From assembly GCA_965226235.1 (NCBI GenBank), contig OZ245335.1:1137660-1201659 (forward strand): DNA of 64,000 nt. The letters run 5' to 3'. The stretch is from Candidatus Oxydemutatoraceae bacterium. GTDB taxonomy: Bacteria > Pseudomonadota > Gammaproteobacteria > Poriferisulfidales > Oxydemutatoraceae. Each line of letters opens with the position of its first letter. Within the stretch, counting starts at the first letter, position 1. The notes beneath the pieces are model-generated. The model did not search any database, was not told where the DNA came from, and saw only the letters and a list, made by a program, of their open reading frames with translations. The position numbers were made by a program, and so were the translations under genes. Shown here one piece after another: positions 1 to 59,188 of the stretch.

Positions 1-3000
1 TGCCAAATCAAACGCCAGCGCGAACACACGCGGGACAATCTCCACACCCAGTGTCGCCGGTGCGACCGCCGCGCCCGCGCCGTCCACATCAAGTACCGAT
101 GCCTCCAGCACGCCATCCGTCGCGGTCGTCGCCGCTTCCAGCGTCACCACAGCCGCGGTGCTGCCTCGGGTGAACATCATCGGCTCCAACGCTACAACAT
201 CCACACCGCCGCCGCCGGCCGAGTCGGACGGAGCATACGTAAACGTCGCCGCGAACACATCATCCCCAATGAGTTCCGTAGCGCCCGTCAGCGTCAGCGT
301 CACCTGCGCCGTGGCACCCGCGACAACGGAAACCGATGCCAGGTCAAACGCCAACGTGAACGCACGCGGGACAATCTCCACACCCAGTGTCGCCGGTGCG
401 ACAGTCGCGCCGGCCACATCGGGCACCGACGCCGTCAGCACGCCATCCGTCGCGGTCGTCGCCGCTTCCAGCATCACCACAGCCGCGGTGCTACCCGCGG
501 TGAACATCACCAGCCCCAACGCCACAACCTCTACTCCGCCGCCGGCCGGGTCAGACGAGTCATATGCAAACGTGACCTCGACCGCCTCATCTTCCCCTAT
601 GAGTTCCGTATCGCCCGTCAGCGTCAACGTCACCTGCGTCGTGGCGCCCGCGACAACGGAAACCGATGCCAGATCAAACGCCAACGCCAACGTGAACGCC
701 CGCGGAACGATCTCTACCGCCAAGGTGGTGGAACCCACCCTCGTGTGTGCGACCGCCGTGCCGTCAGCCAGCAACAACACTTTGCCCGTAGCGACGACCA
801 TCCCCAGCGGTGGCACTGCGTCGAAGGGCGCCACAATGGTAAAGATCGTGCTCTCCTCATCCGCCGTCAGCGTCAGTTCAAGCGGAATGACTGTCGCCGT
901 CGTCGGCCGCAGCGTGACCTGTAGCGTCTCGCCCTCCCTCAGCAAACCCGCATTCTCCAGCACCACCTCCACCTCGGTCGCGCCGCCAGCCAGCACCCGT
1001 GCCGTGGTCGCAGGGACGAACGCCAGCCTGAACCGGCGCACGACAATCACCGGAATCTCTTGAGGATCAACTGTGGCGTTGACCAGACCGGCGGCCGCAT
1101 CGAAGATCGCCTCCAGTACCCCTGCGGTCGCGGTCGACGTCGCGCTCAGTATCGAGGCGACCTCGACGCTGGATGTGGGACTCGTTACGTCAAACACCAC
1201 CGGGGACAGCGTCACGCCGACACCATCGGTGTATGTCCAATCGACCGTCAGTGTCTCGCCCGCAAACAGACGCGACGCACCGAACGGCGTGTCGACCCCC
1301 GACAGGGTGGCGACGACCGGGATGCTTTCGCCCGCGATCACCTGCACGCCGGTGTTGATCTGCAGGCTCCACGCCTCCAGCGTGCCGATTTCACCACGAA
1401 GAAGATAGTCATCTACCGTCAGTGTCCACTCGCCCTGCGCGGGCGCCCCTACCAAAGCAGCCAGACCTGCATGATCCAGCGAGGTGTATGTCTCGAAGAG
1501 ATTCTCCGCAGAGCCGCCCGCCCGGTCATGCAACGCCACTGCCTCCCCCTCGGGAGAAACCAGAAAAACGCGCAGGTCTCCGATAAACGGGTGCAGGATC
1601 TCTACCTGCACCGTCAGCGATTCGATCGTGATTTCGTCCTCCACAGTGATGACGCTACGCACCGACTGCATACCCGTATCATCCGGGATCAGCTCGTTCG
1701 GGCGCACCGTCCGACTGAACTTCCCAGCCGCCGACGACAGCGACAACCGGAAGCGCCGCGGCGCGATCTCCACCGGTAGCGCTGCCGACGCGATCTCGGC
1801 GTTGACCGAAATGGCGCCCGCGACCACCGCCGTCAATGTCCCGCGCGTCGCGTTGAACAACGCGTCCAGCGTCACGCCGACGGGGGTGAGATCCGCGTCG
1901 AACGTCACCCTCTGCGTGGACAGCGCAACGCCGGTGCCGTCGTCATACGCCAGCACCACTTCCAGCTCCTCGCCCGCAAACACCCTCGGAATACCGAGCG
2001 GCGGCGTCCTGATCGCCGTCAGCGAAGCCACCAGCGACACGCTACCGCCCGCCAGCACCGGCGCGAATCCGTTGATCTCCAGGCTCCACGCCTCCAGCGT
2101 GCCGATATTTCCATCAGCATAGTCACCTACCGACAGTGTCCACACGCCCTGCGCGGGTGCCCCTACCAAAGCAGCCAGACCTGCATGATCCAGCGAGGTG
2201 TATGTTTCGAAGAGATTCTCCGCAGAGCCGCCCGCCTCGTCATGCAACGCCACCACCGCCCCCTTGGGAGAAACCAGAAAAACGCGCAGGTCTCCGATAA
2301 ACGAGTGCCGGATCTCTACCCGTACCGCCAGCGATTCGATCGTGATTTCGTCCCCCACAGTGATGGCGCTCTGCACCGACTGCCTAAACGTATCCTGGAT
2401 CGCCTCGTTCGGGCGCTCCGTCCGACTGAACTGGACGACCCCCGCCGGCGACAGCGATAGCCGGAAGCGCCGCGGCACGATCTCCACCCGCAGGGTGATT
2501 GGAACTACCCGCGTGTGCAAAACCTCTTTGTCGTTCGACTCCAACACCACCCGGCCAGCTAATAAGCCCCTCAGCTGCACCGTTCCTGGCAGCAGATCCG
2601 ATCTGTCCTCCATCGAGAAGGTGAAAACATCCCCCGGTTCTGCGTTCTGACCGCTCTGGACGCGACCATGGCGCAGCGGCGGCAGAAGATCAAACAAGAA
2701 TTTCTCGTCCCCCCCCAGCAACTCCGTATCCAGAAACTCCGGATTGTCCAGCACCCACATCACTGTCCTATCGCCGCCACTCAGAATCTGCACCGTCGTG
2801 ACCCCGCGACTGGTATTGTCCGGCGAGGTGGTGATCTCAAGCGGCGTGCCGTCCCGCGTGGCGAAGGAGATAGTAAACTCGCGCAACACCTGCACCGGCA
2901 ACGTCGCAGACGACGGGATCGTCGTGCGCAGCGTACTCGGCACCGTCTCTAGCAACTGCAACTGCAAATCGTCCCTCTGTACCGCAAGGGGAAGGAGCGC

Positions 3001-6000
3001 GGTCAGTTCCAGTTCCAGTTCCTGCGACATTTCTCCTGCACGGAAAGTTAACGTAGCCGGATCTATCTCCAGACCCAATTGCGCCCCAGCGCTTACAGAC
3101 ACATTGACCTGCTCGCCGTCGCGCAGGCTCTCGCCGGCAACGCCTTCCAGGGAGACCAACACCCGCGTCGAAGCACCGGTAACCCGCGGCGAAGCGCCGG
3201 CAACCCGCGTCGAAGCACTGGCAACCACCACCGCGGTAGACAGCCGCTCACCCTGCGGCGAACGGAACACCCACTTGAACTCACGCGCGCCGATGATGCT
3301 CACGGGCAACCCGGCGTCCATAAACTCCGCGCCCGCCAGACTCGCGGGAGACATCTCCACCGAGGCGACCAAAACCGTCGCCCCGGGCGACGTGTCCGCA
3401 GCAGCGCGCAGCACAACCACATGACTCGTAGCAGAGGCGTCGAACGACAGCTCGGTCGGCGACATCACGCTCACTGTGCTGGCATCGTCCAGACGCAATC
3501 TCACAAGCACCTCATCCCCTGCCGGCAGGTGCGACGCGTTGGTCAGCGACAGAACCACCGTCTCCGTCATGCCGGTCAGAATCCCGATCTGCGGCGGCTC
3601 GAACACCAAGCGAAACTCGTTCGGCAACACCTCGATCCTCAGCGCCGCCGGCGCGATCTCGGCGTTGACCGAAATGGCACCCGCGACCGCCGTCAATGTC
3701 CCGCGCGTCGCGTCCAACAACGCGTCCAACGTCACGTCGACGGCGGTGCGCCCGGCGGTGAACGTCACCATCTGCTCGGACAGCGCAACGCCGGTGCCGT
3801 CGTCATACGCCAGTACCACTTCCACCACTTCCGGCCCCACTCCCGCCAGCATCTCGTTCGCAAACAACTGCGGTGTCCCGAGCGGGGTTTCGACCGCCAC
3901 CAGCGAAGCCGTCACCGCCGCGCTACCGCCCGCAAGCACCCGCGCGAATCCGTTGATCTCCAGGCTCCACGCCTCCAGTGTGCCGGTCTCACCATCATTA
4001 TAGTCACCTACCGTCAGTGTCCACTCGCCCTGCGCGGGCACCCCTACCAAAGCAGCCAGACCTGCATGATCCAGCGAGGTGTATGTCTCGAAGAGATTCT
4101 CCGCAGAGCCGCTCATCCGGTCATGCAACGCCACCACTACCCCCTCGGGAGAAACCAGCAAAACGCGCAGGTCTCCGATATCCAAGTGACTGATCTCTAC
4201 CCGCACCTCCAGCGATTTGATCACCGTGGCCTCGGCCACGGTGATGGTGCTGCGCACCGACTGCATAGCCGTATTATCCGGGATCGCCTCGTTCGGGCGC
4301 TCCGTCCGACTGAACTGGACGACTCCCGCCGGCGACAGCGATAGCCGGAAGCGCCGCGGCACGAACTCCACCCGCAGGGAAACTGGAACTACCCGCGTGT
4401 GCAAAACCTCTTTGTAGTCCCCGTCCTCGTCCTTCGACACCACCTTGCCATCTATTAAGCCCAGCGTCACCATTTGTAGCGGCACATTCGAACGAAGGTC
4501 CGTCGAAAATCCGACTTTATCCCCCGGTTCCGGGGGATCACCGCTGCTGACGCGACCATTGGGCAGCGGCGGCAGAAGATCAAACAAGAACTTCTCGTCC
4601 CCCCCCAGCAACTCCAGATCGTCCAGCACCAGCACCAACTCACGAGAGCCGCCAACCAGAATTCGCAGCGTCGTGGCCCTGGGACCGGCATTGTCCGGCG
4701 GGGTGGTGATCTCAAGCGGCGCGCCGTCCCGTGTGGCAAAGGAGATAGTAAACTCGCGCAACACCCGCACCGGCAACGTCGCAGACGGCGGGATCGTCGT
4801 GCACAGCGTATCCGGCATCGTCCCTAGCAACTGCAACTGCAAATCGTCCCTCTGTACCGCAAGGGGAAGGAACGCGGCCAGTTCCAGTTCCAGTTCCTGC
4901 GACATTTCTCCTGCACGGAAAGTGAACTCAGCCGGCTCTATCTCCAGACCCGACTGCGCCCCAACGCTTACAGACACATCGACCTGCTCGGCGCCGAGCA
5001 GGCGCTTGCCGGCAACGCCTTCCAGGGAGACCAACACCCGCGTCAAAGCACCGGCAACCCGCGGCGACGAAGCGCCGGCAACCCGCGTCGAAGCACTGGC
5101 AACCACCACCGCGGCAGACAGCCGCTCACCCTGCGGCGAGCGGAACACCCACTCGAATTCACGCGCGCCGACGATGCACACGGGCAACTCGGCGTCCACA
5201 AATTCCGCGCCCGCCAGACTCGCGGGAGGCATCCCCACCGAGGCGACCAAAACCGTCACCCCGGGCGACGTGTCCGCAGCAACGCTCAGCACAACCACAT
5301 GACTCGTAGCAGAGGCGTCGAACGACAGTTCGGTCGGCGACATCACGCTCACCGTGCTGGCATCGTCCAGAAGCAATCCCACAAGCACCTCATCTCCTGC
5401 CGGCAGGCGCGACGCGTCGGTCAGCGACAGAACCACCGTCTCCTCCGTGCCGGTCAGAATCCCGACCCGCGGCGGCTCGAACACCAAGCGAAACTCGTTC
5501 GGAAACACCTCGATCCTCAGCGTCGCCGGTGCGACCGCCGCACCGGCCACATCGGGCAGCGACGCCGTCAGCACGCCACCCGTCGCGATCGTCGCCACTT
5601 CCAGCATCACCACAGCCGCGGTGCTACCTGCGGTGAACTCCACCGGCCCCGCAACCCGCACGCTGCCGGCCGGGTCAGACGAGTCATATGCAAACGTGAC
5701 CTCGACCGCTTCATCATCTCCTATGAGTCCCGTATCGCCCGTCAGCGTCAACGTCACCTGCGTCGTGGCGCCCGCGACAACGGAAACCGATGCCAGATCA
5801 AACGCCAACGCCAACGTGAACGTCTGCGGGACAATCTCCACCGCCAGTGTCGCCGGTGTGACCGTCGCACCGGCCGCCTCGGGCACCGATGCCGTCAGCA
5901 CGCCACCCGTCGCGGTCGTCGCCGCTTCCAGCATCACCACAGCCGCGGTGCTGCCCGCAGTGAACGTCACCGGCTCCAGAATCTGCACGCCGCCATCCGG

Positions 6001-9000
6001 GTCAGACGAGTCATATGCAAACGTGACCTCGACCGCCTCATCATCTCCTATGAGTCCCGTATCTCCCGTCAGCGTCAGCGTCACCTGCGTCGTGGCGCCC
6101 GCGACAACGGAAACCGATGCCAGATCAAACGCCAACGCCAACGCCCGCGGGACAATCTCCACCGCCAGTGTCGCCGAAACCACCCGCGTGTTCGCGACCG
6201 GTACATCTACATCGCCCGACAGTACCTCGCCCGAGGCGACCACCATCCCCAGCGGCGACACTGCGTCGAAAAGTGCCGCGATGGTGAGGGTCGCGCGCGG
6301 CGTAGTCGGCGTTAGCGTCAGTTCAAGCGGAATGACTGTCACCGTCGTCGGCTGCAACGAAACCAGCAACTGCTCGTCCTCCATCAGCACATCCGGGTTC
6401 TCCAGCACCACCACCACCTCGGTCGTGGCACCCGCAATCACCGACACCGTTGACGCATCGAATGCCAGTACGAACGCACGCGGGACGATCTCCACCGGCA
6501 CCACCGCAGGGTCGATTTCTGCGTTGACCAGACCGGCGGCCGCATCGAATGTCGCCTCCAGTACCCCTGCGGTCGCTTCCAGCGTCGCGCTCAGCGTCGA
6601 GGCAGCCTCAATGCTGGATGTGGGACTCGCTACGTCAAACACCACTGGGGACAGCGTCACGCCGACACCATCGGTGTATGTCCAATCGACCGTCAGTGTC
6701 TCGCCCGCAAACAGACGCGACGCACCGAACGGCGTGTTGACCCTCGACAGGGTGGCGACGACCGGGATGCTTTCGCCCGCGAGCACCTGCACGCCGGTGT
6801 TGATCTGCAGGCTCCACGCCTCCAGCGTGCCGATACCACCAGTCCTATAGTCACCTACCAACAGTTCCCACGTGCCCCGCGCGGGCGCCCCTACCAAAGC
6901 AGCCAGAGCTGCATGATCCAGCGAGGTGTATGTCTCGAAGAGATTCTCCCCAGAGCTGCCCGTCTCGTCATGCAACGCCATCGTCCCATCCTTGGGAGAA
7001 GTCAGAAAAACGCGCAGCTCTCCGATAAACGGGTGCCGGATCTCTACCCGTACCGCCAGCGATTCGATCGTGATTTCGTCCCTCACAGTGATGACGCTAC
7101 GCACCAACTGCGTACCCGTACCCGTACTATCCGGGATCGCCTCGTTCGGGCGCTCCGTCCGACTGAACTGATCGTCACCGGAGAGCGACAGGCGGAAGCG
7201 CCGCGGCGCGATCTCCACCGGTAGCGCTCCCGGCGCGATCTCGGCGTTGACCGAAATGGCGCCCACGACCACCGCCGTCAATGTCCCGCGCGTCGCGTCG
7301 AACAACGCGTCCAGCGTCACGCCGACGGTGGTGCTCTCCGCGTCGAACGTCACCATCTGCGTGGACAGCGCAACGCCGGTGCCGTCATACGCCAGCACCA
7401 CTTCCACCACGTCCGGCCCCACTCCCGCCAGCCCCTCGTTCGTAAACAACTGCGGCGTCCCGAGCGGGGTTTCGACCGCCACCAGCGAAGCCGTCACCGC
7501 CGCGCTACCGCCCGCCAGCACCCGCGCGACGAATCCGTTGATCTCCAGGCTCCACGCCTCCAGCGTGCCGCTATCACCAGAAACATTATCTACCAACAGT
7601 GCCCACTGGCCCTGCGCGGACTCCCCTACCAAAGCAGCCAGACCTGCATGATCCAGCGAGGTGTATGTCTCGAAGAGATTATCCGCAGTGCTGCCCGTCT
7701 GCCCGTGCAACAACACATCACCCGTTCCCCGGGGAGAGGCCAGAAGAACGCGCAGGTCTCCGATACGCGGGTGCCGGATCTTTACCCGCACCGCCAGCGA
7801 TTCGATCGTGATTTCGTCCCCCACAGTGATGAAGTTGTGCACCGACTGCGTAACCGTACCATCCGGGATCTCCTGGTTCGGGCGCTCCGTCCGACTGAAC
7901 CGATTGGAGGGCGACAGCGATAGCCGGAAGCGCCGCGGCACGATCTCCACCCGCAGGGAGACTGGAACTACCCGCGTGTGCAAAACCTGTTCGCCGTCCG
8001 ACTCCAACTCCACCCGGCCAGTTAAGCCCAGCGTCACCGTTCTTGGCCTCACATTCGATGCGCGGTCCATCGATAAGGTGATTACATCCCCCGGTTCCAA
8101 GCCCTGACCGCCGCTGACGTTACCATTGGGCAGCGTCGGCACAAGATTCAAAATGAACACCTCGCCCACCCCCAGCAACCCCGGATTATCCAGCACCAGC
8201 ACCAACGCACGAGAGCCGCCAATCAGAATCTGCACCGTCGTGGCCCTGCGACCGGCATTGTCCGGCTGGGTGATGATCTCAATCGGCGCGCCGTCCGGCG
8301 TGGCGAAGGAGAAAGTAAACTCGCGCAACACCTGCACCGGCACCACCGCAGGGTCTATTTCTGCGTTGACCAGACCGGCGGCTGCATCGGGTCTCGCCTC
8401 CAGCACCCCTACCCCTGTGGTCGCGTCCGGTGTCGCGCTCAGCATCGAGGCGACCTCGACGCTGGATGTGGGACTCGCTACTTGAAACACCACCGGGGGC
8501 AGCGTCACGCCGGCGCCATCGGTGTATGTCCAATCGGCCGTCAGCGTCTCGCCCGCAAACAGACGCGACGCACCGAACGGCGTGTCGACCCCCGACAGGG
8601 TGACGACGACCGGGATACTTTCGCCTGCGAGCACCTGCACGCCGGTGTTGATCTGCAGGTACCACGACTCCAGCGTGCCGGCGCTCTCAGTTGCAAAGTT
8701 ATCTGTCACCGTCAGCGACCAATCGCCCTGCGCGCTACCCCCGACCAAGGCCGCCAGACCCGCGTCGCCCACCGACATATATGCCCGGACGAGGTCGGGC
8801 CCAGTGTCCAAAGCGTTAGGCCTGTGCAGTGTCACCGTCGTTCCCCCGGGCGGTGTCAGCACAACCTCCAGCTCGCTCCTATCCGGGTGGCTGATCGCGA
8901 CCCCGACCACCAGCGATTCGATCGTGATGTCCTCCGTCACGGTGATGATACTGACCAGCGGCGCGAAATCCAGATCCGGAATAAAAGCATGGGGACGCGC

Positions 9001-47378: not shown

Positions 47379-47592
47379 CTACCCGTCAGTACCCACTCGC
47401 CCTGCCGGGTGTCGGCCTACCAAAGTCGGCCAGACCTGCATGATCGCAGCGAGGTGTATGTTTTCTCGAAGAGATTGCTCTGGTCAGTGCAACAACCCGC
47501 CGTCATTCAACGCCACCACCGTCCCCTCGGGAGGCACCAGCACAACGCGCAGGTCTCGCTGATATTCGGGTGCCGGATCTCTACCTGCACCG
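47379..47592 (-). pseudogene. Decayed P-domain copy at the junction of the 2267-aa and 1412-aa ORFs
   Basis: The plus strand at 47327-47760 aligns base-for-base with the intact copy at 1361-1790. It carries several small insertions, e.g. ggctaccacgcc vs ggctccacgcc, gtatgttttctcgaag vs gtatgtctcgaag, and gatcgcagcgagg vs gatccagcgagg. The P-domain sense therefore jumps phase at least 4 times in about 300 bp. Confidence 0.7.
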
Positions 47593-50500: not shown

Positions 50501-53500
50501 GTCTCCATAGACACCAGCCTCACCGTGCTGTCATCCGCCAGGCTCAACTCGACTACAACGCGCTCTGCCGGCAGTAGCAGTGACGCACCGGTCAAAGACA
50601 AGTTCACCGTCTCCGTCGTCCCCGCCAGCATCCCGATCTCCGGCGGTGTGAACTCCAGGCGAAATTCCTGCGGCAAAACCTCGATCGCCAACGACGTCGG
50701 CTCGACCATCGCTTTCGCCAAACCACTGCCGGTCAGCTCCAGCACACCCCGCGTCGCGGTCGGCAATGCCGTCACCGTCGCTACGCTCGCGGGGCTGTCC
50801 ACGCTCAACGATACCGGCAACAGGCTCACGCCCACCCCATCCTTGTAAACAAAATGTACCTGCAATGTCTCGCCCGCGAACAACCGCCCTGTACCCAGCG
50901 GCGTATCCACGCCCGAAACGCGCACCCTCACCTCGGTCGTGCTGCCCGCGACCACTCGTCCGGATCCATGAACCGACAAGCGAAAACTCCGCGGCACGAC
51001 CTCCACCGCCAGAGAAGCCGAAGCCACCTGTGCATCCGCAACCATGGAACCGTCCAACAACACCTCACCCGACGCCTCCACCTCCTCCAGCAACGGCCCC
51101 GCTTCAGTCCCCGCCGCGATGGTCACCACCATACTCGATGCCCTCCGCGTCAGCGTCAGTTCCGGCTCAACGGTGGTCCCCGTCGTCGCCGACAGCGTGA
51201 GCCGCACCACCTCGTTCATCCTCAAATCTTCGGGGTTTTGCAACGCCACTGCGACCCTGGTCTCGCCGCCAGCCAGTACCTGTGCGACCTCGAGCGCCCC
51301 GCCTCCCGGCGTCTTGAACTCCAGCGTGAGAAGCCGTCGCATGATGATCCTCACATCCAGTGGCACAATTTCAACCACCTCTTTCGGCGACCTGTCGGGT
51401 GGCACGAACGCAAGCAGCACTCCATCGGTCGCTTGCGCGGACGCCGTCAGCGTCACATCGACCTCGGTGCTTCCCTCCATGAACACAAACGGCTCCACCG
51501 TGACCTCTCCCTCGCCGCTGTAGCCGAAGAGATTGATATTCAACGTCTCGCGTGCGGACAATGTCGGGGCACCCAACGGCGTCTTTACCCCCACCAGGCG
51601 CGCCGTAATCGCCGTCGAAATACCCGCCACCACCCGCGCCTGCCGCGGCGCCCGCAGCCCGAAACCGATGCCCCATGCCTCCAGCCTGCCTGTCTGCAGT
51701 GGGTAATAGTCACCTACCTCCAGCTTCCACTCGCCCTGCGAGCCTGCCCCAATCAGCGAACTCAGGCTATCCCCCCGCGTCGTGTAAACCTCCCTCATAT
51801 AATCGCGGAAGAATTCTGATTCTTCTTCTGGTGATGGTCGTGGACTCCGCTCATGAAGTATCACCCTCGTCAAGTCCGGCGCAGTCAGCGCAATACGCAG
51901 ATTCCCCTGGGCTGGGTGCATGATCGATACCATCACCCATGCCGACTCGATCGTGCTGTCCTCCACCACGTTGAGCACGCTGTGCACCGATAGATCCCCC
52001 GTATTGTCCGGAATTGCCACGGGCGAGTCGAGAAACCGCGTGTAGGTAGCCCCCGGGTCGCTCGACGTCTCACCCAGCTCCAGCCGGAACCGCCGTGGCA
52101 CGATCTCCACCGCCAGGGAAGCCGAAACCGCCCCCGCATCCATAACCACGGAACCGCTCGACAACACTTCTCCCGACGCCTCCACCTCCCCCAGCAACGG
52201 CCCAGATTCAGTCCCCGCCGCGATGCTCACCACCGCACTCGATGTCATCTGCGTCAGCGTCGGTCCAGGCACATCGGTGGTTACCCCCCCCATCGCCGAC
52301 AGCGTGACTTGCACCTCCTCGCCCGGCAGCAACTGTCCTGGATTTTGCAACGCCACCGCAACCCTGGTCGTCCCGCCAGCCAGCACCCGTGCCTCTGGCA
52401 GCATCCCACCTTCCGGCGTCTTGAACTCCAGCGTGAGAAGCCGAAGCTGCCGCATGAGCCTCACCTCCAGCGGCACAATTTCAACCACCGCTTTCAGCAG
52501 CCTGGCGGGTGGCACGAACGCAAGCAGCACTCCATCGGTCGCTTGCGCGGACGCCGTCAGCGTCACATCGACCTCGGTGCTTCCCTCCGTGAACTCGAAC
52601 GGCTCCACCGTGACCCCCTCCTCGCCGCTGTAGCCGAATACATCGACCGACAATGTCTCACCCGCGGACAGCACCGGGGCACCCAACGGCGTCTTTACCC
52701 CCACCAGGCGCGCCGTAATCTCCGTCGAAATACTCCGCACCACCGTCTGCCGCGGCGCCCGCAGCCCGAAACCGATGCCCCATGTATCCAGCCTGCCTGT
52801 CCCTCTGGCGTAATAGTCACCTACCTCCAGCTTCCACTCGCCCTGCGAGCCTGCCCCAACCAGCGAACTCAGGCTATCCCCCCGCGTCGTGTAAACCTCC
52901 CTTATATTATCGCGGGAGAAGTCTGAAGCTGATTGATGTTGATGTGCACGAAGTAACATCCTCGTCTCATCCGGCCTAGTCAGCGCAATACGCAGCTGCC
53001 CCCGGGATGGGTGCGTGATAGATACCATCACCCATGCCGACTCGATCGTGCTGTCCTCCTCCACGTTGATCATGCTGTGCACCGATAGATCCTTCGTATT
53101 GTCCGGAATTGCCACGGACGAGTTGAAAAACCGCATGTAGGTAGCCCCCGGGTCGCTCGACGTCTCACCCAGCTCCAGCCGGAACCGCCGTGGCACGATC
53201 TCCACCGCCAGGGAAGCCGAAACCACAGGCACATCCGCAACCATGGGATCGTCCGACAACACTTCTCCCGACGCCTCCACCTCCCCCAGCCGCGGCCCAA
53301 ATCCAGTCCCCGCCGCGATGCTCACCACCGTACTCGGCACATCCTCCGTCAGCGTCAGCGTCAGTCCAGGCACATCGGTGGTTACCACCATCGCCGACAG
53401 CGTGACCTGCACCTCCTCGCCCGGCAGCAACTGTTCGGGCTTTTGCAACGCCACCGCAACCCTGGTCGAGCCGCCAGCCAGCACCCGAGCGGCCTCGAGC

Positions 53501-54396
53501 GCCCTGCCTTCCGACGTCTTGAACACCAGCGTGAGAAGCCGCTGCACGATCCTCACCTCAAGCGGCACAACTTCAACCACCGCGTTCGGTAGCGCGAGGG
53601 GTGACACGAATGCGGATAGCACTCCATCGGTCGCTTGCACGGACACCGTCAGCGTCACATCGACCTCGGTGCTTCTCTCCGTGAACTCGAACGGCTCCGC
53701 CATAACCCCCTCGCCGCTGTAGCCGAATACATCGACCGACAATGTCTCACCCGCGGACAGCACCGGGTGACCCAACGGCGTCTCTATCCCCACCAGGCGC
53801 GCCGGCGCCGCTGTCGGAATACCCGCCACCGCCTGCACCTGCCGCGGTCCGAACCCGATGCCCCACGCGTCCAGACTGCCTATATCGTCAAGTGCATAGT
53901 CACCAACGGTCAGCACCCACTCGCCCCGCGATCCCGCTACATCCAGGTGATCCTGCAACGTATAAATCGTCCTTATACCATCGTAGCTTCCATCTTCCAT
54001 ATTATGAAGAGACACTCTCGTCTCATCCGGCGCAATCAACCCAACAATCAGATCGCTCGGCTCTGGGTGCGTGATCGATACCATCACCCATGCCGAATCG
54101 ATCGTGCTGTCCTCCACCACGTTGATCGTGCTACGCACCGATTGAGTACGCGTATTGTCCGGAATTGCCACGCCCGGGCTGAAAAGCCGCGTGTAGGTAA
54201 CCCCCGGGTCGCTTGACGCCTCACCCAGCTCCAGCCGGAACCGCCGTGGCACGACCTCCACCGCCAGAGAAGTCGAAGCCACCCGTGTATCCGCAACCAT
54301 GGAACCGCCCGACAACACCTCGCCTGACGCCTCCACCTTCCCCAGCTGCGGCCCAACTCCAGTCCTCGCCGCGATGCTCACCACCGTACTCGGCAT
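47593..54396 (-). CDS. Giant-protein segment (2267 aa): four ~355-aa Ig-Ig-P-domain modules, further Ig-like units, two Calx-beta-like domains, and one more P-domain
   Basis: Track ORF. The repeated block is VPRRFRLELGE.SSDPG.TY.RF..S.VAIPDNT...SV.S..NV.EDSTI.SAWVMVSI.HP....L...L..PD.TR..L...Y......L.G..S.GEW.L.VGDY.....G.L.AWGIGFG. Calx-like sequence (..ALGIVFTLTRQSDDLSSPLTVRVSVDEPRDGNRVL.., ..IIDDAIAEGEETFRLFI..IRIIDNDIVSLSF) lies at about 49.2-50.0 kb. The ORF starts mid-repeat (MPSTVVSIAA..) and ends in junk inside a P-domain (IPDGQSVGAQCHHCARTKSRSNR*). Confidence 0.8.
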   Translation of the reverse strand: MPSTVVSIAARTGVGPQLGKVEASGEVLSGGSMVADTRVASTSLAVEVVPRRFRLELGEASSDPGVTYTRLFSPGVAIPDNTRTQSVRSTINVVEDSTIDSAWVMVSITHPEPSDLIVGLIAPDETRVSLHNMEDGSYDGIRTIYTLQDHLDVAGSRGEWVLTVGDYALDDIGSLDAWGIGFGPRQVQAVAGIPTAAPARLVGIETPLGHPVLSAGETLSVDVFGYSGEGVMAEPFEFTERSTEVDVTLTVSVQATDGVLSAFVSPLALPNAVVEVVPLEVRIVQRLLTLVFKTSEGRALEAARVLAGGSTRVAVALQKPEQLLPGEEVQVTLSAMVVTTDVPGLTLTLTEDVPSTVVSIAAGTGFGPRLGEVEASGEVLSDDPMVADVPVVSASLAVEIVPRRFRLELGETSSDPGATYMRFFNSSVAIPDNTKDLSVHSMINVEEDSTIESAWVMVSITHPSRGQLRIALTRPDETRMLLRAHQHQSASDFSRDNIREVYTTRGDSLSSLVGAGSQGEWKLEVGDYYARGTGRLDTWGIGFGLRAPRQTVVRSISTEITARLVGVKTPLGAPVLSAGETLSVDVFGYSGEEGVTVEPFEFTEGSTEVDVTLTASAQATDGVLLAFVPPARLLKAVVEIVPLEVRLMRQLRLLTLEFKTPEGGMLPEARVLAGGTTRVAVALQNPGQLLPGEEVQVTLSAMGGVTTDVPGPTLTQMTSSAVVSIAAGTESGPLLGEVEASGEVLSSGSVVMDAGAVSASLAVEIVPRRFRLELGETSSDPGATYTRFLDSPVAIPDNTGDLSVHSVLNVVEDSTIESAWVMVSIMHPAQGNLRIALTAPDLTRVILHERSPRPSPEEESEFFRDYMREVYTTRGDSLSSLIGAGSQGEWKLEVGDYYPLQTGRLEAWGIGFGLRAPRQARVVAGISTAITARLVGVKTPLGAPTLSARETLNINLFGYSGEGEVTVEPFVFMEGSTEVDVTLTASAQATDGVLLAFVPPDRSPKEVVEIVPLDVRIIMRRLLTLEFKTPGGGALEVAQVLAGGETRVAVALQNPEDLRMNEVVRLTLSATTGTTVEPELTLTRRASSMVVTIAAGTEAGPLLEEVEASGEVLLDGSMVADAQVASASLAVEVVPRSFRLSVHGSGRVVAGSTTEVRVRVSGVDTPLGTGRLFAGETLQVHFVYKDGVGVSLLPVSLSVDSPASVATVTALPTATRGVLELTGSGLAKAMVEPTSLAIEVLPQEFRLEFTPPEIGMLAGTTETVNLSLTGASLLLPAERVVVELSLADDSTVRLVSMETLEFSALTPSHEVELEALAGDLGATTLSAVVTSSPTNLLGVDFVNGELAVNVIDSREFMWVFRSAETRVELSEVLIGAGGPARVLVSLEGVRGESLAAGEEVMAELTAPAGMTVSSLTLVVMSDDLSPVITLMADADAMSGELRLQTEEMPLPRVMVEQSAALPVRVVTGVLIEAAAPEVNEDDALGIVFTLTRQSDDLSSPLTVRVSVDEPRDGNRVLVEDAPYRASAVFEANSMTATLQLAVNDDTVWEPLRTTVMATVLPLPGEEYGPVLPLSASVQVLDNDIPAIRFRFVSLTGEVDEGDEYDTVEISVETLGDEPPHDEIRVDGHVQDHFSLRYFTRLESEDNAMQSADFVAFSTEVSISYAGFIFEEDRDVWSKVVPAPPVTIIDDAIAEGEETFRLFIRKIGSDDRIRWVSMAQATHKIRIIDNDIVSLSFLTAEDDPLAAASVLAGGMTEVELVLTNAESLDGVYADRVVVTLTTETVTVVGTDTVGVSDDVVSVTLTADEPSETLTIRAAAGETLEVGKITATGAVKLADADVATVGPVELDVTINPAPVQVLREFTFSFTTLDGAPLEIITPTVQILVGGSNSVRLVLDNPELLGMGEEFILNLVPPLPNGRVSSGQRTEVGDVVTFSTDVNSDVPLQTVTLGLTGRVELESDGEQVLHTRVVPVSLRVEFVPRRFRLSLSPAAGKFSRTERPNELIPDNTGMQSVHSFINVGDEITIESLAVRVEISHLDIGDLNVLLVSPEGAVVVLHDFVSGSAENLFETYTSLDHAGLAALVGAPAQGEWTLSVGDYVSGDTGTLEAWSLEINGFAPVLAGGSAAVTASLVAVETPLGTPQLFANETLEVALAYDDGTGVALSEQMVIFDAERTTVGVELTALLSATRGTLTAVAAGAISVNAEIAPAALPVEIAPRRFRLSLSGAPFGDAPFVGASRPVALIPDGQSVGAQCHHCARTKSRSNR

Positions 54397-54404
54397 CTCC
54401 TCCG

Positions 54405-56678
54405 TCAGAACGTCAGCGTCGGTCCAGGCACATCGGTGGTTACCACCATCGCCGACAGCGTGACCTGCACCTCCTCGCCCCGCAGCAACTGTCCTGGATT
54501 TTGCAACGCCACCGCAACCCTGGTCGAGCCGCCAGCCAGCACCCGAGCGGCCTCGAGCGCCCTGCCTTCCGACGTCTTGAACACCAGCGTGAGAAACCGC
54601 CGCATGATCCTCACCTCAAGCGGCAAAACTTCAACCACCGCGTTCGGTAGCGCGAAGGGTGACACGAACGCGGATAGCACTCCATCGGTCGCTTGCGCGG
54701 ACGCCGTCAGCGTCACATCGATCTCGGTGCTTCCCTCCGTGAACTCGAACGGCTCCGCCATAACCCCCTCGCCGCTGTAGCCGAATACATCGACCGACAA
54801 TGTCTCACCCGCGGACAGCACCGGGTGACCCAACGGCGTCGCTATCCCCGCCAGGCGCGCCGGCACCGCTGTCGGAATACCCGGCACCGCCTGCACCTGC
54901 CGCGGTCCGAACCCGATGCCCCACGCGTCCAGACTGCCTGTATCTAGATTTAAATAGTCACCAATGGTCAGCACCCAAATGCCCTCCGAGTTTTTCCCAA
55001 CCAGTGGACTCAGGCGATCCTGCAACGTATAAATCATCCTTATACCATCGGAGCTTCCACCTTCCTTACCATGAAGAAACACTCTCGTCTCATCCGCATC
55101 CGGCGCAATCAACTCAACAATCAGATCGCTCGGCTCTGTGTGCGTGATCGATACCATCACCCATGCCGACTCGATCGTGCTGTCCTCCTCCACGTTGATC
55201 GTGCTGCGCACCGATTGAGTATTCGTACCGTCCGGAATTGCCACGCCCGGGCTGAAAAGCCGCGTGTAGGTAACCCCCGGGTCGCTTGACGCCTCACCCA
55301 GCTCCAGCCGGAACCGCCGTGGCACGACCTCCACCGCCAGAGAAGTCGAAACCACCCGTGTATCCGCAACCATGGAACCGCCCGACAACACCTCGCCTGA
55401 CGCCTCCACCTTCCCCAGCCGCGACCTCGCTTGAGTCCCCGCCGCGATGCTCACCACCGCAGTCGACATCTCCATTGTCAGCAATGGCGGCTGATCGGTG
55501 GTTACCATCATCGCCGACAGCGTGACCCGCACCGCTTCGCCCGACAGCAACTGTCCAGGATTTTGCAACGCCACCGCAACCCTGGTCGAGCCGCCAGCCA
55601 GCACCCGAGCGGCCTCGAGCGCCCTGCCTTCCAGCGTCTCGAACCGTAGCCAAAACTCGCGCATCACCCGAACCGGCAACACCGCTTCCACCACGCGCGT
55701 GTCCTCCACTATCTCGCCACCCATCATCACTTTACCCGATGCCGTGAGCATGCCGCCCGCGCCGCCTGACGCGCCGATTACCACCCGCTCGCTCGACGAC
55801 ATCACCACCCGCTCGCTCGACGACATCGCCGCCGTCAACACGAACATAACCTGCTCGATGCTCACCCCCGCCTGCTCGATGCTCACCCCCGTCGCCTCCA
55901 GCGTCACCGATACCTCCTCGCTGGACAGCAGCAATTCCGGGCGGGCAAGCATCACCGACACCTCGGTCGTGCCGCCCGCCAGCACCCGTACCTCTTCCAA
56001 TGCTTCGCCTTCCGGCGTCGCAAACCGTAGCCCAAATTCGCGCATGATCCGCAACCGCAACTCGGCGGTTATAAACTCAACATTGAGCACCCCATGGTCG
56101 TCCGGCACCGACGCGCGCAACGCGGTGCCACTCACCTCGACATCCGTCGAAACCTTCAGCTCCACCACGTGACTCGGGGTAACCGAGCTGAACTCCAGCG
56201 ATGCCGGCGTCACCAGCGTGGCCGGATGCATCGGAAGCAACACCACTGGCACCACGGCGTCTGCCGGCAACAGCGACGCATCCGGCAGCGTCAACCTCAC
56301 CGTCACCTCCGCCGGCACTTCCGCGCCTACCGAGACCTTGATCTCCGGCGGCACAAACGCCAGCGGAAACGACCGCGCCTCGATGCGCACCCCCAGCGGC
56401 GCCGGAGGAAACTCAACCGTCGCGTTCATCGGCGAGGCGAATGGCACGAGCGCGAGCAACACTCCTTTGGTCGCTTCCGCAGACGCCGTCAGCGTCACAT
56501 CGACCTTGGTGCTTCCCATCGGGAACCTGACTGACTCCACCTCGACCCCCACACCGCTGTATCCGAATCTGCCGACCGACCAGCTCTCGTGCTCGAACCA
56601 TATCGGGTCACCCAACGGCGTCGGTATCCCCACCAGACGCGCCGTAACCACCGTGGAAGCGTCAGCCAGCACTCGCAC
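54405..56678 (-). CDS. Giant-protein segment (757 aa): Ig-like units plus one P-domain-like module
   Basis: Track ORF. It begins inside a module (MRVLADASTVVTARLVGIPTPLG) and ends ..VVTTDVPGPTLTF*. The paralog there continues ..VVTTDVPGLTLTLTEDVPSTVV. Confidence 0.75.
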   Translation of the reverse strand: MRVLADASTVVTARLVGIPTPLGDPIWFEHESWSVGRFGYSGVGVEVESVRFPMGSTKVDVTLTASAEATKGVLLALVPFASPMNATVEFPPAPLGVRIEARSFPLAFVPPEIKVSVGAEVPAEVTVRLTLPDASLLPADAVVPVVLLPMHPATLVTPASLEFSSVTPSHVVELKVSTDVEVSGTALRASVPDDHGVLNVEFITAELRLRIMREFGLRFATPEGEALEEVRVLAGGTTEVSVMLARPELLLSSEEVSVTLEATGVSIEQAGVSIEQVMFVLTAAMSSSERVVMSSSERVVIGASGGAGGMLTASGKVMMGGEIVEDTRVVEAVLPVRVMREFWLRFETLEGRALEAARVLAGGSTRVAVALQNPGQLLSGEAVRVTLSAMMVTTDQPPLLTMEMSTAVVSIAAGTQARSRLGKVEASGEVLSGGSMVADTRVVSTSLAVEVVPRRFRLELGEASSDPGVTYTRLFSPGVAIPDGTNTQSVRSTINVEEDSTIESAWVMVSITHTEPSDLIVELIAPDADETRVFLHGKEGGSSDGIRMIYTLQDRLSPLVGKNSEGIWVLTIGDYLNLDTGSLDAWGIGFGPRQVQAVPGIPTAVPARLAGIATPLGHPVLSAGETLSVDVFGYSGEGVMAEPFEFTEGSTEIDVTLTASAQATDGVLSAFVSPFALPNAVVEVLPLEVRIMRRFLTLVFKTSEGRALEAARVLAGGSTRVAVALQNPGQLLRGEEVQVTLSAMVVTTDVPGPTLTF

Positions 56679-57003
56679 ATGACGCGGCGCCCGTGAGTTG
56701 AACCCGATGCCCCATGCATCCAGCCTGCCTGGACCGGCAGATGAACCAGAGTTATTAATTATCAGTGTCCAGGTGCCCCGTGTGCTTCTCCCAATCGCAC
56801 CACCCAGACCCGCATTAGTCTCCTCTGCGCCGCGCTGTAAACCTTCCGTATATCACTGCTGGATCCGCCGCTCGAATCAATAAACCTATTATTCCCGCCC
56901 CCCTCCAGCGTAACACTTACCCCCCCCGGGGTTAGGGTTCCGACCGATACCATCAGCCATACCGAATCGATCCGGATGTCCCTCTCCACATTGATCGAGC
57001 TCA
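56679..57003 (-). pseudogene. Divergent, frameshifted P-domain copy between the 686-aa and 757-aa ORFs
   Basis: Track ORF 56762..57007 carries the P-domain core in a third phase (SSINVERDIRIDSVWLMVSVG..). Downstream sense (..GRLDAWGIGFNSRAPRHVRVLADAS) is in the phase of ORF 54405..56678. The zone contains a C8G4 homopolymer pair at 56920-56931. Confidence 0.6.
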
Positions 57004-59064
57004 TCACCTCCTGCCGGCGCCCGCCGCAAGTTCCAGACCCGGGCTGCGAAACTCGTAGATACCCGTCCCCGGGTCGCTCGACACCTCGCCCAGCTCCAGC
57101 CGGAACCGTCGTGGCACGACCGCCAGCGCCAGGGAAGTCGGAACCACCCGCGTACCCGCAACCATGGAACCGCCCGACAACACCATGCCCGACGCCTCCA
57201 CATTCCTCCGAGGCGACTCCACATCAACCGCCGCCGCTATGCTCACCGCCATACTCGATGCCATCTGCGTCAGCGTCGGTCCAGGCACATCGGTGGTGAC
57301 TCCCATCCCCGACAGCGTGACCCGCACCGCCTCGCCAGGCATCAAATCTTCGGGGTCCTGCAACGCCACCGCGACCCTGGTCGCGCCCCCCGCCAGTACC
57401 CGTGCCTCTGCCAGCGCCTCACCTTCCAGCGTCTCGAACCGCAGCCCAACCTCGCGCGTGATCCGCAACTGTAACTCGGCGTCGTCCGCAAACACAGCAT
57501 CGGGCACCCCATGGTCCGTCGCCACCGACGCGCGCAACGCGATGTCACTCACCCCGGCGTCCGTCAAAACCCTCACCTCCACCACGTAACTCGGGGTAGC
57601 CGAGCTGAACTCCAGCGACGTCGGCGTCAGCAGTTCCAGCCTGGAGGGATGCAACGGAGACAACGTCACCGGCACCACGGCGTCCTCCGGCAACAGCGAC
57701 GCATCCGGCAGCGTCAACGTCACCGACGTCTCCACCGGCACCTCCGCGCCCACCAGGATCTCGATCTCCGGCGGCATGAACGCCAGCGAGAACAACCGCC
57801 CCATGATCCTCACCCCCAGCGGCACAGCTTCAACCACCGTGATCGGGGAGGGTGGCACGAACGCGAATAGCACTATACCGGTCGCGGTCGTTTGCACGGA
57901 CACCGTCAGCGTCACATCGACCTCGGTGTTTCCCCCCGTGAACTCGAATGGCTCCGCCACGACCCCCCCACCGCTGTATCCAAACTCGCTGACCGACAAT
58001 CTCTCGCCTACGGACAATATCGAGTCACCCAACGGCGTCGATATCCCCACCAGGCGCGCCGTAACCACCGTCGTAGCACCCGCCAATACCTGCACCTGCC
58101 GCGGCGCCTGCTGCCCGAAACCGATACCCCACGCATCCAGCTGGCCAACACCATCACCAGATCTATTGTCACCGACGGTCAGCTCCCAAATGCCCTCCGA
58201 GTTTTTCCCAACCAGTGGACCCAGGCGATCCTGCAACGTATAAATCGCCCTTATATTCCTGAACCTTCTATTTTCCCTATTATGAAGAAACACTTTCGTC
58301 CCATCCGGCGCAATCAACTCAACACGCAGATACCTCAGGTTTGGGTGCGTGATCGATACCATCACCCATACCGAGTTGATCGTGCTGTCCTCCACCACGT
58401 TGATCGTGCTACGCACCGATTGAGTAGCCGTACCGTCCGGAATTGCCACGCCCGGGCTGAAAAACCGCGTGTAGGTAGCCCCCGGGTCGCTCGACGCCTC
58501 ACCCAGCTCCAGCCGGAACCGCCGTGGCACGACCTCCACCGCCAGGGAAGCCGAAACCACCTGTGCACCTATAACCGGAGAACCGTCTTCTACCGACAAC
58601 ACCACGCCCGACGCCTCCACCTCCCCTAACCGCGCCCCTACATCATCCAGCGCCGCTATGCTCACCACCGCACTCGATGTCATCTGCGTCAGCGTCAGTT
58701 CCGGCTGAACGGTGGTCCCCGTCGTCGCCGACAGCGTGACCCGCACCTCGTTGTTCATCTCCAATCTTTCGGGGTTTTGCAACGCCACCGCGACCTTGGC
58801 CGTACCGCCCCCCAGCACCTGTGCCGTACCGATCGGGATGCCTTCCAGCGTCCTGAACTCCAGTATCACCGGTTCGGGAAGAGACTGCGCCTGCCCGGCA
58901 CAGGAGAACAGCGTCAGGAAAACAAGCGCGCCAAGCCCCCCGCCGAACGCACCCGGCCTGCTTCTGCCAGCAACGCGCCAAAATGTCGGCGGCACACGAC
59001 CGAACCACGTGCGCCGATCGCTTATCGTTGATGCTTCGGTTGGCAAAATAGTGCGCTTTTCCAA
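57004..59064 (-). CDS. N-terminal segment of the giant secreted protein (686 aa listed): signal peptide, Ig-like units, one P-domain
   Basis: The track ORF begins at TTG (59064-59062), and there is no ATG in the first 60 codons. GTG at 58995-58993 is an alternative start. Residues ..RVAGRSRPGAFGGGLGALVFLTLFSCAGQA/QS look like a Sec signal peptide, with a basic n-region, a hydrophobic core and a small-residue cleavage site. The ORF is followed by noncoding sequence on its 5' side. Its C-terminus breaks inside a P-domain lead-in (RRFRLELGEVSSDPGTGIYEFRSPG..). Confidence 0.75.
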   Translation of the reverse strand: MEKRTILPTEASTISDRRTWFGRVPPTFWRVAGRSRPGAFGGGLGALVFLTLFSCAGQAQSLPEPVILEFRTLEGIPIGTAQVLGGGTAKVAVALQNPERLEMNNEVRVTLSATTGTTVQPELTLTQMTSSAVVSIAALDDVGARLGEVEASGVVLSVEDGSPVIGAQVVSASLAVEVVPRRFRLELGEASSDPGATYTRFFSPGVAIPDGTATQSVRSTINVVEDSTINSVWVMVSITHPNLRYLRVELIAPDGTKVFLHNRENRRFRNIRAIYTLQDRLGPLVGKNSEGIWELTVGDNRSGDGVGQLDAWGIGFGQQAPRQVQVLAGATTVVTARLVGISTPLGDSILSVGERLSVSEFGYSGGGVVAEPFEFTGGNTEVDVTLTVSVQTTATGIVLFAFVPPSPITVVEAVPLGVRIMGRLFSLAFMPPEIEILVGAEVPVETSVTLTLPDASLLPEDAVVPVTLSPLHPSRLELLTPTSLEFSSATPSYVVEVRVLTDAGVSDIALRASVATDHGVPDAVFADDAELQLRITREVGLRFETLEGEALAEARVLAGGATRVAVALQDPEDLMPGEAVRVTLSGMGVTTDVPGPTLTQMASSMAVSIAAAVDVESPRRNVEASGMVLSGGSMVAGTRVVPTSLALAVVPRRFRLELGEVSSDPGTGIYEFRSPGLELAAGAGRR
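58888..58995 (-). other. Predicted Sec-type signal peptide coding region of the giant protein
   Basis: Translation (V/M)PPTFWRVAGRSRPGAFGGGLGALVFLTLFSCAGQA, then QSLPEP. This is by-eye n/h/c region recognition only. Confidence 0.5.
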
Positions 59065-59188
59065 GAGAATAGCTTGCGTACCAGCAAAATGAATCCGTTG
59101 CGTTAGTACCCACGCTCAGTGTAGATCATACTACCAAAGTTTGTATGGGTTTGTATGCATCCACCACACAAGGACAGATCAGGCAGAT

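Follow-up and report, generated by a model that had tools for sequence, protein, structure and literature searches.

We analysed a 64,000-nucleotide (nt) stretch of DNA (hereafter the window) from a Candidatus Oxydemutatoraceae bacterium (assembly GCA_965226235.1, contig OZ245335.1, positions 1,137,660 to 1,201,659) and found that its minus strand is a single colinear coding tract from position 59064 to position 1, with 59,064 nt of gene in the window. The explanation that we favour, and consider probable rather than secure, is that one gene, about 60.7 kb long and with about 20,240 codons, encodes a secreted surface fibre and is cut by about 39 frame defects, the dense patches of which are most likely technical. 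Its product would hold about 150 beta-sandwich domains in four blocks: an array of immunoglobulin-like (Ig-like) modules and P-domains, an array of Calx-beta super-repeats, an orphan middle, and a second Ig-like and P-domain array (Table 1). A preliminary description of this DNA, made from its letters alone, had proposed one ancestral gene, now interrupted by mutations or assembly errors, and this is supported by close relatives, by breaks that fall inside domains, by array transitions that fall inside continuous open reading frames (ORFs) and by a small intact homologue.

When log-odds of codon usage, learned from the three longest frames, are traced along the DNA, the signal stays on the minus strand across every frame hop. 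An all-against-all blastp of ORF fragments from that strand did not separate the frames, as DNA repeats produced matches in each of them. The leftmost frame, 1..12273, has 4091 codons without a stop and runs past the left window edge. The preliminary description had pointed out that this ORF was missing from the supplied ORF track, which was borne out, as the lister drops open-ended frames, and recomputation found no in-frame stop within 1..12258. We also reproduced its ORF ends at 13533, 20420, 22485, 23915, 43140, 47378/47593, 54396/54405 and 56678/57004, and recounted the section 59064-23915, put there at about 11,700 codons, as 11,717. Its list of breaks proved incomplete, as a Viterbi frame trace finds 35 frame changes and 4 in-frame stops in the tract, or about 39 defects. 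Likewise, the statement that no gap exceeds about 330 bp held only loosely: the stretch 18611-18092 carries several stops, at 18608-18610 (an ORF end), 18394 and 18271, and a frame-0 stretch at 18268-18092 stops at about 18089. The Viterbi trace shifts frame near 18614 and 18122, and so scores just two in-frame stops in this stretch. None of the long plus-strand ORFs matches a family, and we take them for the shadow ORFs usual in G+C-rich coding DNA; plus-strand ORFs or an insert were rejected as the cause of the messy region at 17.7-20.6 kb, where neither strand had family matches. With 1658 nt added to the left of the window, where the end was placed from a relative (L008, below), the conceptual total is 60,722 nt, or about 3% of the 2.1-Mb genome. 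The conceptual product, of roughly 2 MDa, is acidic in composition (D+E 14.2%, K+R 6.3%) and Cys-poor (0.3% Cys).

Two contigs from close relatives carry the ends of the same tract. The first, ENA contig ctg444256_4x_l (label 4x; loci L001 and L009), is 95.8% identical to window 59345-46984 and has ORFs of 249, 492 and 5761 aa, the last of which reads through the window breaks at 57010, 54410 and 47.3-47.65 kb. Almost all of the remaining indel clusters between the window and L001 sum to multiples of three. The second, contig ctg396616_2x_l (label 2x; locus L008), is 97.06% identical to window 11635-1 and is split into eight ORFs by seven breaks where the window keeps a single frame. Both window ends of the tract are therefore colinear with independent relative contigs, over 12.4 kb and 11.7 kb. 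As the preliminary description had stated, ORF boundaries fall inside domains: hidden Markov model (HMM) matches and paralogue alignments place the breaks within Ig-like, P or Calx domains, and matches to a single domain are split between frames at 54.4, 43.2, 47.5 and 56.8 kb. Conversely, the transitions between arrays lie inside continuous ORFs, which argues against a chimeric join: ORF 47378-43140 includes Ig-like modules plus the first Calx domain of the array, and ORF 43327-23915 closes with an Ig-like module that replaces the last Calx domain.

The tract starts with what appears, by inspection, to be a Sec-type signal peptide (..RVAGRSRPGAFGGGLGALVFLTLFSCAGQA|QS), with a basic n-region, a hydrophobic core, an AxA-like site and a conserved Cys. 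It is kept in L001 and, with 40% identity from residue 9, in P0007, a homologue of 749 aa that is intact and lies on a 2.43-Mb contig labelled 38x; the tract, L001 and P0007 share the head pattern ..SRPGA..GL.AL.FLTLF[SP]CAG.AQS. Over 448 residues, the N-termini of P0007 (..SRPGALAAGLVALAFLTLFPCAGYAQS..) and of the tract are 40% identical. The C-terminus of P0007 (..LRLHMRVLLEGPLQ-stop) matches the tract end in L008 (..VRVRVRVFLEGPLQ-stop) from end to end, the last residues being RVLLEGPLQ-stop in P0007 and RVFLEGPLQ-stop in L008. Given that P0007 matches both extremities, the tract has exactly one family head and one family tail. No second signal peptide was seen at the N-termini of downstream ORFs by inspection of their translations, in agreement with the preliminary description; in a hydropathy scan for additional signal or transmembrane segments, V/A/L-rich beta-strands score equal to the signal peptide. 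The N-terminal piece and the head alignment (A3) retrieved no related loci in GTDB genomes or JGI metagenomes. The conserved Cys at the end of the signal peptide (58900-58912 minus, LTLF[SP]C|AG), found also in L001 and P0007, may be part of a lipoprotein lipobox, a candidate that is atypical in having Phe at -2 and Ser/Pro at -1.

Further members of the family were observed. ENA ERZ25071132 contig ctg814896_3x_l (L002, 134 kb, 1-22907) carries a P-domain ORF tract of at least 23 kb with about 40% amino-acid identity, which is fragmented at 3x and has flanking ORFs of 4003 and 4063 aa that run off both ends. Elsewhere on the window's own 2,108,672-nt contig, P0016 is an 808-aa ORF of the same Ig-like and P modules, at most 72% identical to any window segment, so that the genome has at least a second locus of the family.

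The frame defects are very unevenly spread. Four breaks are isolated (57013, 56852, 54408 and 43150), and the others concentrate in four dense patches (47.64-47.38, 24.0-22.5, 20.64-17.68 and 13.58-12.24 kb) with about one defect per 150 nt; the longest clean stretches measure 19.2 kb and 12.2 kb, and under a uniform rate the chance of a 19.2-kb clean stretch is about 1.5e-5. Indels in the patch at 47650..47330 are mostly extra bases in the window. The isolated TT insertion at 54409-54410 is seen against a 93.6%-identical neighbouring repeat and is absent in L001, and the insertion at 43160 is seen against a 90%-identical repeat, with a Calx HMM match split there. At 56853-56764, where the window and L001 break alike, a programmed frameshift was considered and rejected, as inspection of the 90-nt overlap found no X XXY YYZ heptamer or long homopolymer.

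Local consensus errors of long-read metagenome assembly most likely explain the four dense patches. These patches look technical because the 2x contig L008 shows the same kind of insertion-rich patch where the window is intact, with about 35 extra bases in 1.1 kb at window 10991-9917. The contigs that break the window's own gene are labelled 2x and 4x and the fragmented L002 tract 3x; the intact P0007 sits at 38x. The names of the relatives' contigs fit what we take to be metaMDBG output. Metagenome-assembled genomes (MAGs) of this style come from sponge projects that combined PacBio HiFi reads with metaMDBG (PMC12988363). Some breaks may instead be genuine, namely the isolated indels at 57010, 54410 and 43160 together with the shared break at about 56.8 kb; if so, this strain's copy would be freshly inactivated or heterogeneous in the population.

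Sequence evolution bears on the same question. For window 1-11635 against L008 and window 47700-59064 against L001, differences by codon position 1:2:3 number 187:214:109 (chi-square P 2.5e-8), and the pooled ratio of nonsynonymous to synonymous change (dN/dS) between strains is 1.57 (binomial P 2e-5 against 1). Differences between strains are clustered, with 126 of the 209 in the L008 comparison lying within 9-11 kb, which suggests intragenic gene conversion together with diversifying selection. Among paralogous repeats dN/dS is about 1-2, and the 15 repeats in alignment A1 (median dS 0.36, dN 0.40) differ by up to about 40% in DNA. Given that the 19.4-kb Calx frame holding these repeats (43327-23915) has no stop despite their divergence, the gene was kept translatable over the long term. 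Meanwhile most residues were at liberty to vary or were even driven to do so. The codon-position skew and dN/dS argue against neutral decay, and the pattern resembles what a diversifying surface protein would show rather than a pseudogene that died long ago. The gene seems to evolve through duplication of modules and recombination within it, its amino acids turning over fast; dN/dS above 1 plus module polymorphism between near-identical strains would fit host- or phage-driven diversification.

The main rival holds that the locus is a true pseudogene of recent origin. On this view one giant gene existed until not long ago, its frameshifts and stops are real, the full-length protein is no longer produced, and the case reflects gene loss in a host-restricted symbiont. 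We regard this as unlikely. It would account for the break common to the window and L001 and for the private isolated indels; the stops at 18394, 18271 and 18608-18610 sit in protein-like text, insertion sequence (IS) remnants flank the locus, and relaxed selection also yields dN/dS of 1 or more. However, real decay would be expected to be even, not to leave 19.2 and 12.2 kb clean beside about 22 defects in 3 kb, and changes at third codon positions are about half as frequent as at the first two, unlike in neutral decay. Moreover, both assemblies have breaks of their own at sites that are unbroken in the other, and among the relatives of this gene the 2x contig, the lowest in coverage, has the densest private breaks.

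Several points weigh against an intact single gene for a surface fibre, and some of them also favour the pseudogene. The three isolated window-specific indels do not lie in homopolymers, the usual site of HiFi errors, and the window's contig is 2.1 Mb long, which suggests decent coverage. The 56.8-kb break is common to two independent assemblies and lies near the N-terminus; if it is real, 19,000 codons downstream have no signal peptide. The contig of L001 and L009 is colinear with the window only down to 46984, after which it continues (L009:1-20484) with P and Ig modules that are 85-90% identical to the window's C-terminal array, without a Calx array; either this is a structural polymorphism of about 35 kb, so that module content varies between strains, or there is a mis-assembly in one of them. 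It is the relative L008, not this genome, that supplies the tail and the final 550 codons. Outside recombination tracts, baseline divergence between the window and L001 is only about 0.3%, which makes a recent mutation common to both plausible, and a downstream frame intact since the strain split is weak evidence of current function; for this reason we dropped the argument that a frame open since that split must be translated. No secretion or anchoring partner was found in the flanks examined (about 5-7 kb per side), and genes with the tail have no conserved downstream neighbour beyond orthologous loci. Finally, we infer rather than observe the adhesin function, the Ca2+ binding and the sponge host.

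An operon of several large genes, for example a signal-peptide protein of about 770 aa ending at 56762 followed by separate giants, appears improbable. The stop at 56762 is common to L001, a stand-alone homologue of similar size (P0007) exists in another genome, and L001, L002 and L008 are likewise annotated as ORF strings. Nevertheless, successive frames overlap at the ORF ends by 28-210 nt, these ends cut domains, ORF boundaries differ between assemblies, no downstream ORF was seen on inspection to start with a signal peptide, and the tail of P0007 corresponds to the distant end of the tract rather than to the stop at 56762.

The notion that tract length and order are an assembly artefact, with repeats of one or several smaller paralogous genes concatenated or mis-joined, is very improbable: repeats that are 85-97% identical over hundreds of bases, the different internal order without a Calx array on the relative's contig, a fall of G+C to 57% in the Calx block and the paralogous P0016 locus on the same contig would allow it, but the Calx block joins Ig-like modules at both ends inside continuous frames, its G+C at third codon positions (GC3, 0.65) is within the range of the flanking housekeeping genes, its repeat units are all distinct, so that long reads can place them, and both tract ends are colinear with independent contigs. 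A foreign or chimeric origin of the Calx block, with its lower G+C, was rejected on the same in-frame junctions and ordinary GC3.

The domain architecture of the single gene that we favour was established with HMMs built from the window and searched against all three minus frames. The Ig-like module (about 103 aa) has about 56 copies, 25 of them in 58.8-46.7 kb and 26 in 12.6-0 kb, the rest being weaker. The tract has 16 P-domains, two of which are split between frames (at about 57.0-56.7 kb and 47.6-47.3 kb); in 1-12273 the Pfam P-domain PF01483 scores 424 bits over 7 stretches, and in 47593-54615 it scores 204 bits. Overall, Pfam places P-domains in 1-12273 and 47593-59115 and Calx-beta in 23915-47378, with no match in 12.3-23.3 kb. 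An AlphaFold2 (AF2) model of the [Ig-like]-[P] unit (A2; predicted local distance difference test, pLDDT, 76) matches in Foldseek the P-domains of Aeromonas serine protease (ASP), furin and Kex2. Searches of the tract with Pfam, NCBIfam and an RTX regular expression found no catalytic, RTX, beta-barrel or known anchor domain, and NCBIfam has no family for any tract segment.

Calx-beta domains of one type number 18: one at 49.7 kb and 17 from 44495 to 25156, spaced 1.16-1.25 kb apart. Each super-repeat of 390-415 aa aligns as three beta-sandwich domains (A1) with the invariant acidic motifs VLVLDDD, LMEGDE and ITIVDNDF, and the units are all distinct, with 40-87% amino-acid identity to the first row of the alignment. 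Single super-repeats score 32.5-35.7 bits against Pfam Calx-beta (PF03160; cut-off 27), and the array halves 91 and 112 bits. The AF2 model of a super-repeat is all-beta (pLDDT 76), and its top Foldseek matches in the PDB are the tandem Calx-beta CBD12 of NCX1/CALX (E 4e-11 to 1e-9, about 285 columns), so that the second and third domains are, as modelled, probably Calx-beta-like. The earlier estimate of about 50 Calx-beta-like domains corresponds to 18 super-repeats of three beta-sandwich domains; only the first domain of each three passes the Pfam threshold. The sequence between the Ig/P and Calx arrays has neither a Pfam match nor a PDB sequence match.

The orphan middle had two marginal matches in an exhaustive HMMER search of 1.84 billion representative proteins (best E 2e-6 over 50 residues), nothing in a word-indexed protein search and none in PDB sequence searches. 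It nonetheless belongs to the same protein, as divergent Ig-like copies occur inside it (at 24235, 23823, 21835, 19360, 16127 and 12597 by the in-window HMM). Two tandem duplications were observed in this region, at 14308-15062 (381 nt x 2.0 copies, 84% identity) and at 22226-22387 (84 nt x 1.9 copies, 96% identity), indicating that module birth is ongoing there too.

At the other end, a 330-nt period at 1-691 marks where tandem 110-aa modules begin. The L008 frame runs on for 1658 nt past window position 1 through such modules and closes with a conserved tail of about 13 residues, hRhRxRVFLEGPLQ-COOH (L008:13380-13421; also L003:12208-12250 and L012-L018). A DNA-level scan for R-V-[FL]-L-E-G-P-L-Q-stop in 185,579 GTDB species genomes gave 7 matches, all in three Ca. 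Porisulfidus MAGs and none in other genomes; by our own estimate the pattern carries about 38 bits, for which a few chance matches across all genomes would be expected, but not seven within one genus that all fall in frame where long ORFs end. The seven Porisulfidus ORFs all run off their loci, which do not reach the N-termini of these proteins. Two are unbroken for at least 3330 and at least 3356 aa, and they carry other repeats, either GLUG, PKD and Big or cadherin-like. In L008, P0007 and the seven Porisulfidus ORFs the tail sits at the extreme C-terminus in the same register; given that synonymous codons and the stop codon vary and that the downstream DNA is unrelated, it is conserved at the peptide level. 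On the same grounds we rejected the possibility that the tail is an IS end or another DNA element abutting truncated genes, an idea that had been prompted by an IS5-like element beside the L008 tail; that the tail comes after a complete module also counts against it. No Pfam or NCBIfam model matches the tail, and its alignment (A4) found nothing in JGI metagenomes.

We tentatively propose, as a possibility that we would not rate above doubtful, that this tail is an undescribed sorting or docking signal for Sec-exported giant repeat proteins of unrelated domains in sponge-symbiotic Gammaproteobacteria, with the present protein as the largest cargo. Like PEP-CTERM, GlyGly-CTERM, LPXTG and the C-terminal domain (CTD) of the type IX secretion system (T9SS), it is a short, family-independent motif that ends several large surface-type proteins per genome, and those tail proteins whose N-terminus is known also have a signal peptide. 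In contrast to sortase, exosortase and rhombosortase tags, it ends ..RVRVRVFLEGPLQ-stop with no transmembrane helix or basic cluster after it, and its roughly 13 residues, an alternating Arg/hydrophobic stretch followed by ..EGPLQ, are shorter than the sorting tags compared. No cognate sorting enzyme or transporter was identified for it. If the proposal holds, the tail would be a new sorting tag common to different huge adhesin-like proteins of two sponge-symbiont lineages, and could point to an unrecognised surface-display route relevant to the attachment of symbionts to sponge hosts or their recognition by them.

Giant adhesins secreted by type I secretion systems (T1SS) with RTX repeats (LapA, SiiE, BapA and the 1.5-MDa Marinomonas MpIBP) resemble the tract in being megadalton, acidic, repetitive beta-sandwich rods with presumed Ca2+ stiffening and a distinct non-repetitive region that possibly binds ligands, and MpIBP repeats (4p99, 5irb) are among the weaker Foldseek matches to the Calx super-repeat. 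The preliminary description was nevertheless right to set the tract apart from the LapA, SiiE and ice-binding-adhesin type. The RTX nonapeptide (GGxGxDxUx) is matched once, by chance, across about 19,000 residues and not at all in the 335 C-terminal residues of L008, the examined flanks hold no ATP-binding cassette (ABC), membrane fusion protein (MFP) or TolC genes, and the tract has an N-terminal signal peptide and a different C-terminal end. Its repeats are the P-domain, Calx-beta and an unclassified Ig-like module, as opposed to the bacterial Ig-like (BIg) domains of RTX adhesins. As to type V secretion, Pfam and NCBIfam found no translocator or two-partner secretion (TPS) domain in the first 703 aa, in the 1200 aa closest to the left window edge or in the final 335 aa of L008, and none was found in the flanks.

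The preliminary description had also spoken of exceptional size, which is accurate in that the gene is large but does not make it unprecedented, given that the preprint of West-Roberts et al. (2023; bioRxiv 10.1101/2023.11.21.568195), which calls proteins of at least 10,000 aa large and of at least 30,000 aa giant, mentions a Chlorobi protein of 36,805 aa. The conceptual product, with about 20,000 aa, would fall into their large class, not the giant one, and its longest actual frame is 6470 codons. The proteins of Chlorobium chlorochromatii (Chlorochromatium aggregatum) and others in that survey are similarly repeat-rich and of adhesion type, with 10,000-37,000 aa, occur in bacteria that live fixed to a partner organism, and frequently come out of metagenome assembly in fragments. 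Unlike the tract, in which none of these features was found, they carry haemagglutinin, RTX, toxin or peptidase domains, and the Omnitrophota examples are rich in transmembrane regions and also have SecA-like domains. Repetitive surface proteins of giant size are already known and 20,000 residues is no record; what is new is the architecture and the tail.

With CBD12 of NCX/CALX the tract shares the tandem Calx-beta fold and acidic motifs. Sponge aggregation factors are described as Calx-beta-rich, Ca2+-dependent adhesion molecules (PMC5400394, PMC11670116). Unlike either, the tract is bacterial and has 18 triplets of the domain, in which two of each three domains fall below the Pfam threshold, and homology is at the domain level only. 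The P-domain is shared, by sequence and fold, with furin/Kex2 convertases and bacterial secreted peptidases, and database relatives outside the family are S8, M4, M6 and M28 peptidases with a single P-domain. In contrast to these, no tract segment has a peptidase domain, and P-domains repeat as [Ig-like]-[P] units. To our knowledge, no characterised protein has such repeats along a fibre. The architecture, in which 16 P-domains lacking a peptidase are set in [Ig]-[P] units and joined with 18 Calx-beta triplets and an orphan core of 12 kb, is new, and we found no description of it among characterised adhesins.

From these features, the giant protein would be exported through Sec and possibly lipid-anchored at the conserved Cys (LTLF[SP]C), forming an extracellular fibre hundreds of nanometres long that could be stiffened by Ca2+, which sea water would supply to the acidic Calx-beta motifs. 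It may act as an adhesin or surface coat of a sulfur-oxidiser-like gammaproteobacterial sponge symbiont, with the P-domains, the orphan middle or both as candidate ligand-binding parts that attach to host or neighbour surfaces, and with the tail as a possible surface sorting or docking tag. A weaker extension, which is speculation, is that the 54 Calx-beta-like domains engage the host's own Calx-beta-rich, Ca2+-dependent aggregation-factor system. For annotation, the case illustrates that a giant gene can be nearly invisible to current pipelines, being shredded into ORFs with assembly-dependent boundaries, and that close relatives plus a small intact family member offer a way to show that the pieces form one gene.

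Table 1. Parts of the giant gene, frame breaks and neighbouring features, in window coordinates
Feature	Position	Strand	Frame	Remarks
Gene start and putative signal peptide	59064..58888	minus		TTG at 59064, alternatively GTG at 58994
N-terminal array	58887..46677	minus		about 25 Ig-like modules, 8 P-domains, one lone Calx-beta (49668-49255); HMM censuses, Pfam PF01483
P-domains of N-terminal array	58383, ~57.0-56.7k, 55178, 54105, 53049, 51954, 48324, 47608-47327	minus		HMM census
Beta-rich unassigned sequence	46676..44496	minus		about 727 codons; between Ig/P and Calx arrays, same ORF 47378-43140
Calx-beta array	44495..24236	minus		17 super-repeats, three Calx-beta-like domains each
Orphan middle	24235..12274	minus		about 3,900 codons; three of the four dense break patches inside
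C-terminal array	12273..1	minus		about 26 Ig-like modules, 8 P-domains; open at left edge
Stop-free stretch	59115-57004	minus	f1	703 codons
Stop-free stretch	57223-56762	minus	f0	153 codons
Stop-free stretch	56852-54405	minus	f2	815 codons
Stop-free stretch	54615-47593	minus	f1	2340 codons
Stop-free stretch	47378-43140	minus	f2	1412 codons
Stop-free stretch	43327-23915	minus	f0	6470 codons; longest uninterrupted frame in assembly
Stop-free stretch	24099-22819	minus	f1	426 codons
Stop-free stretch	23342-22485	minus	f2	285 codons
Stop-free stretch	22513-20420	minus	f0	697 codons
Stop-free stretch	19783-18611	minus	f0	390 codons
Stop-free stretch	17690-13533	minus	f2	1385 codons
Two further short stop-free stretches	near 13 kb	minus		
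Stop-free stretch	12273-1	minus	f1	4091 codons; open at edge
1-nt deletion against L001 (GGCGG[C]GAGG)	57013..57004	minus		window-specific; creates stop at 57004
-1 frame break in divergent P-domain	56853..56764	minus		common to window and L001
2-nt insertion (TT, coding strand) in Ig-like module	54410..54405	minus		window-specific; TGA directly after
Dense patch in P-domain	47650..47330	minus		about 20 small indels against L001/paralogues, 2 frame changes, 2 in-frame stops
1-nt insertion (extra T at 43160, plus strand) in Calx domain	43160..43140	minus		window-specific; stop at 43140
Densest patch	20637..17681	minus		about 20 frame changes, 2 in-frame stops in 3 kb; protein-like text between
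Dense patch between orphan region and C-terminal array	13581..12240	minus		7 inferred frame changes
Remnant of transposase C-terminus, presumed IS3 family	59338..59230	minus		directly upstream of giant gene; translation WVDWFNKRRLLQPIGDVPPVEYELMYY
Ferrochelatase hemH	59363-60370			right flank
HNH endonuclease ORF, stand-alone	60393-61016	minus		207 aa; between hemH and bioC-like gene
bioC-like methyltransferase, bioH-like hydrolase, plsY				right flank

The flanks bear on the history and the bearer of the gene. The transposase remnant directly upstream, which we take from its motif to be of the IS3 family, is a synteny boundary: the L001 alignment starts at 59345 within an rve_3 gene, and in L001 the same remnant is preceded by transposase genes and quite different neighbours, indicating that the locus moved or was rearranged. 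On the other side, L008 has an IS5-like transposase (DDE_Tnp_1 and DUF772, two ORFs; L008:14991-13662, minus) 240 nt past the stop of the giant gene, followed by genes for an M48 peptidase, L31, HemN, Ham1 and RNase PH. A Ca. Oxydemutatoraceae MAG has a hemH with 71% identity to the one in the window, but lacks a giant gene at that locus. Oxydemutator and Porisulfidus have been described as sponge symbionts (PMC11685487, PMC12988363), and the bearer of the giant gene is probably one as well. The frame of the HNH endonuclease overlaps a long N-terminal extension of the hemH ORF.

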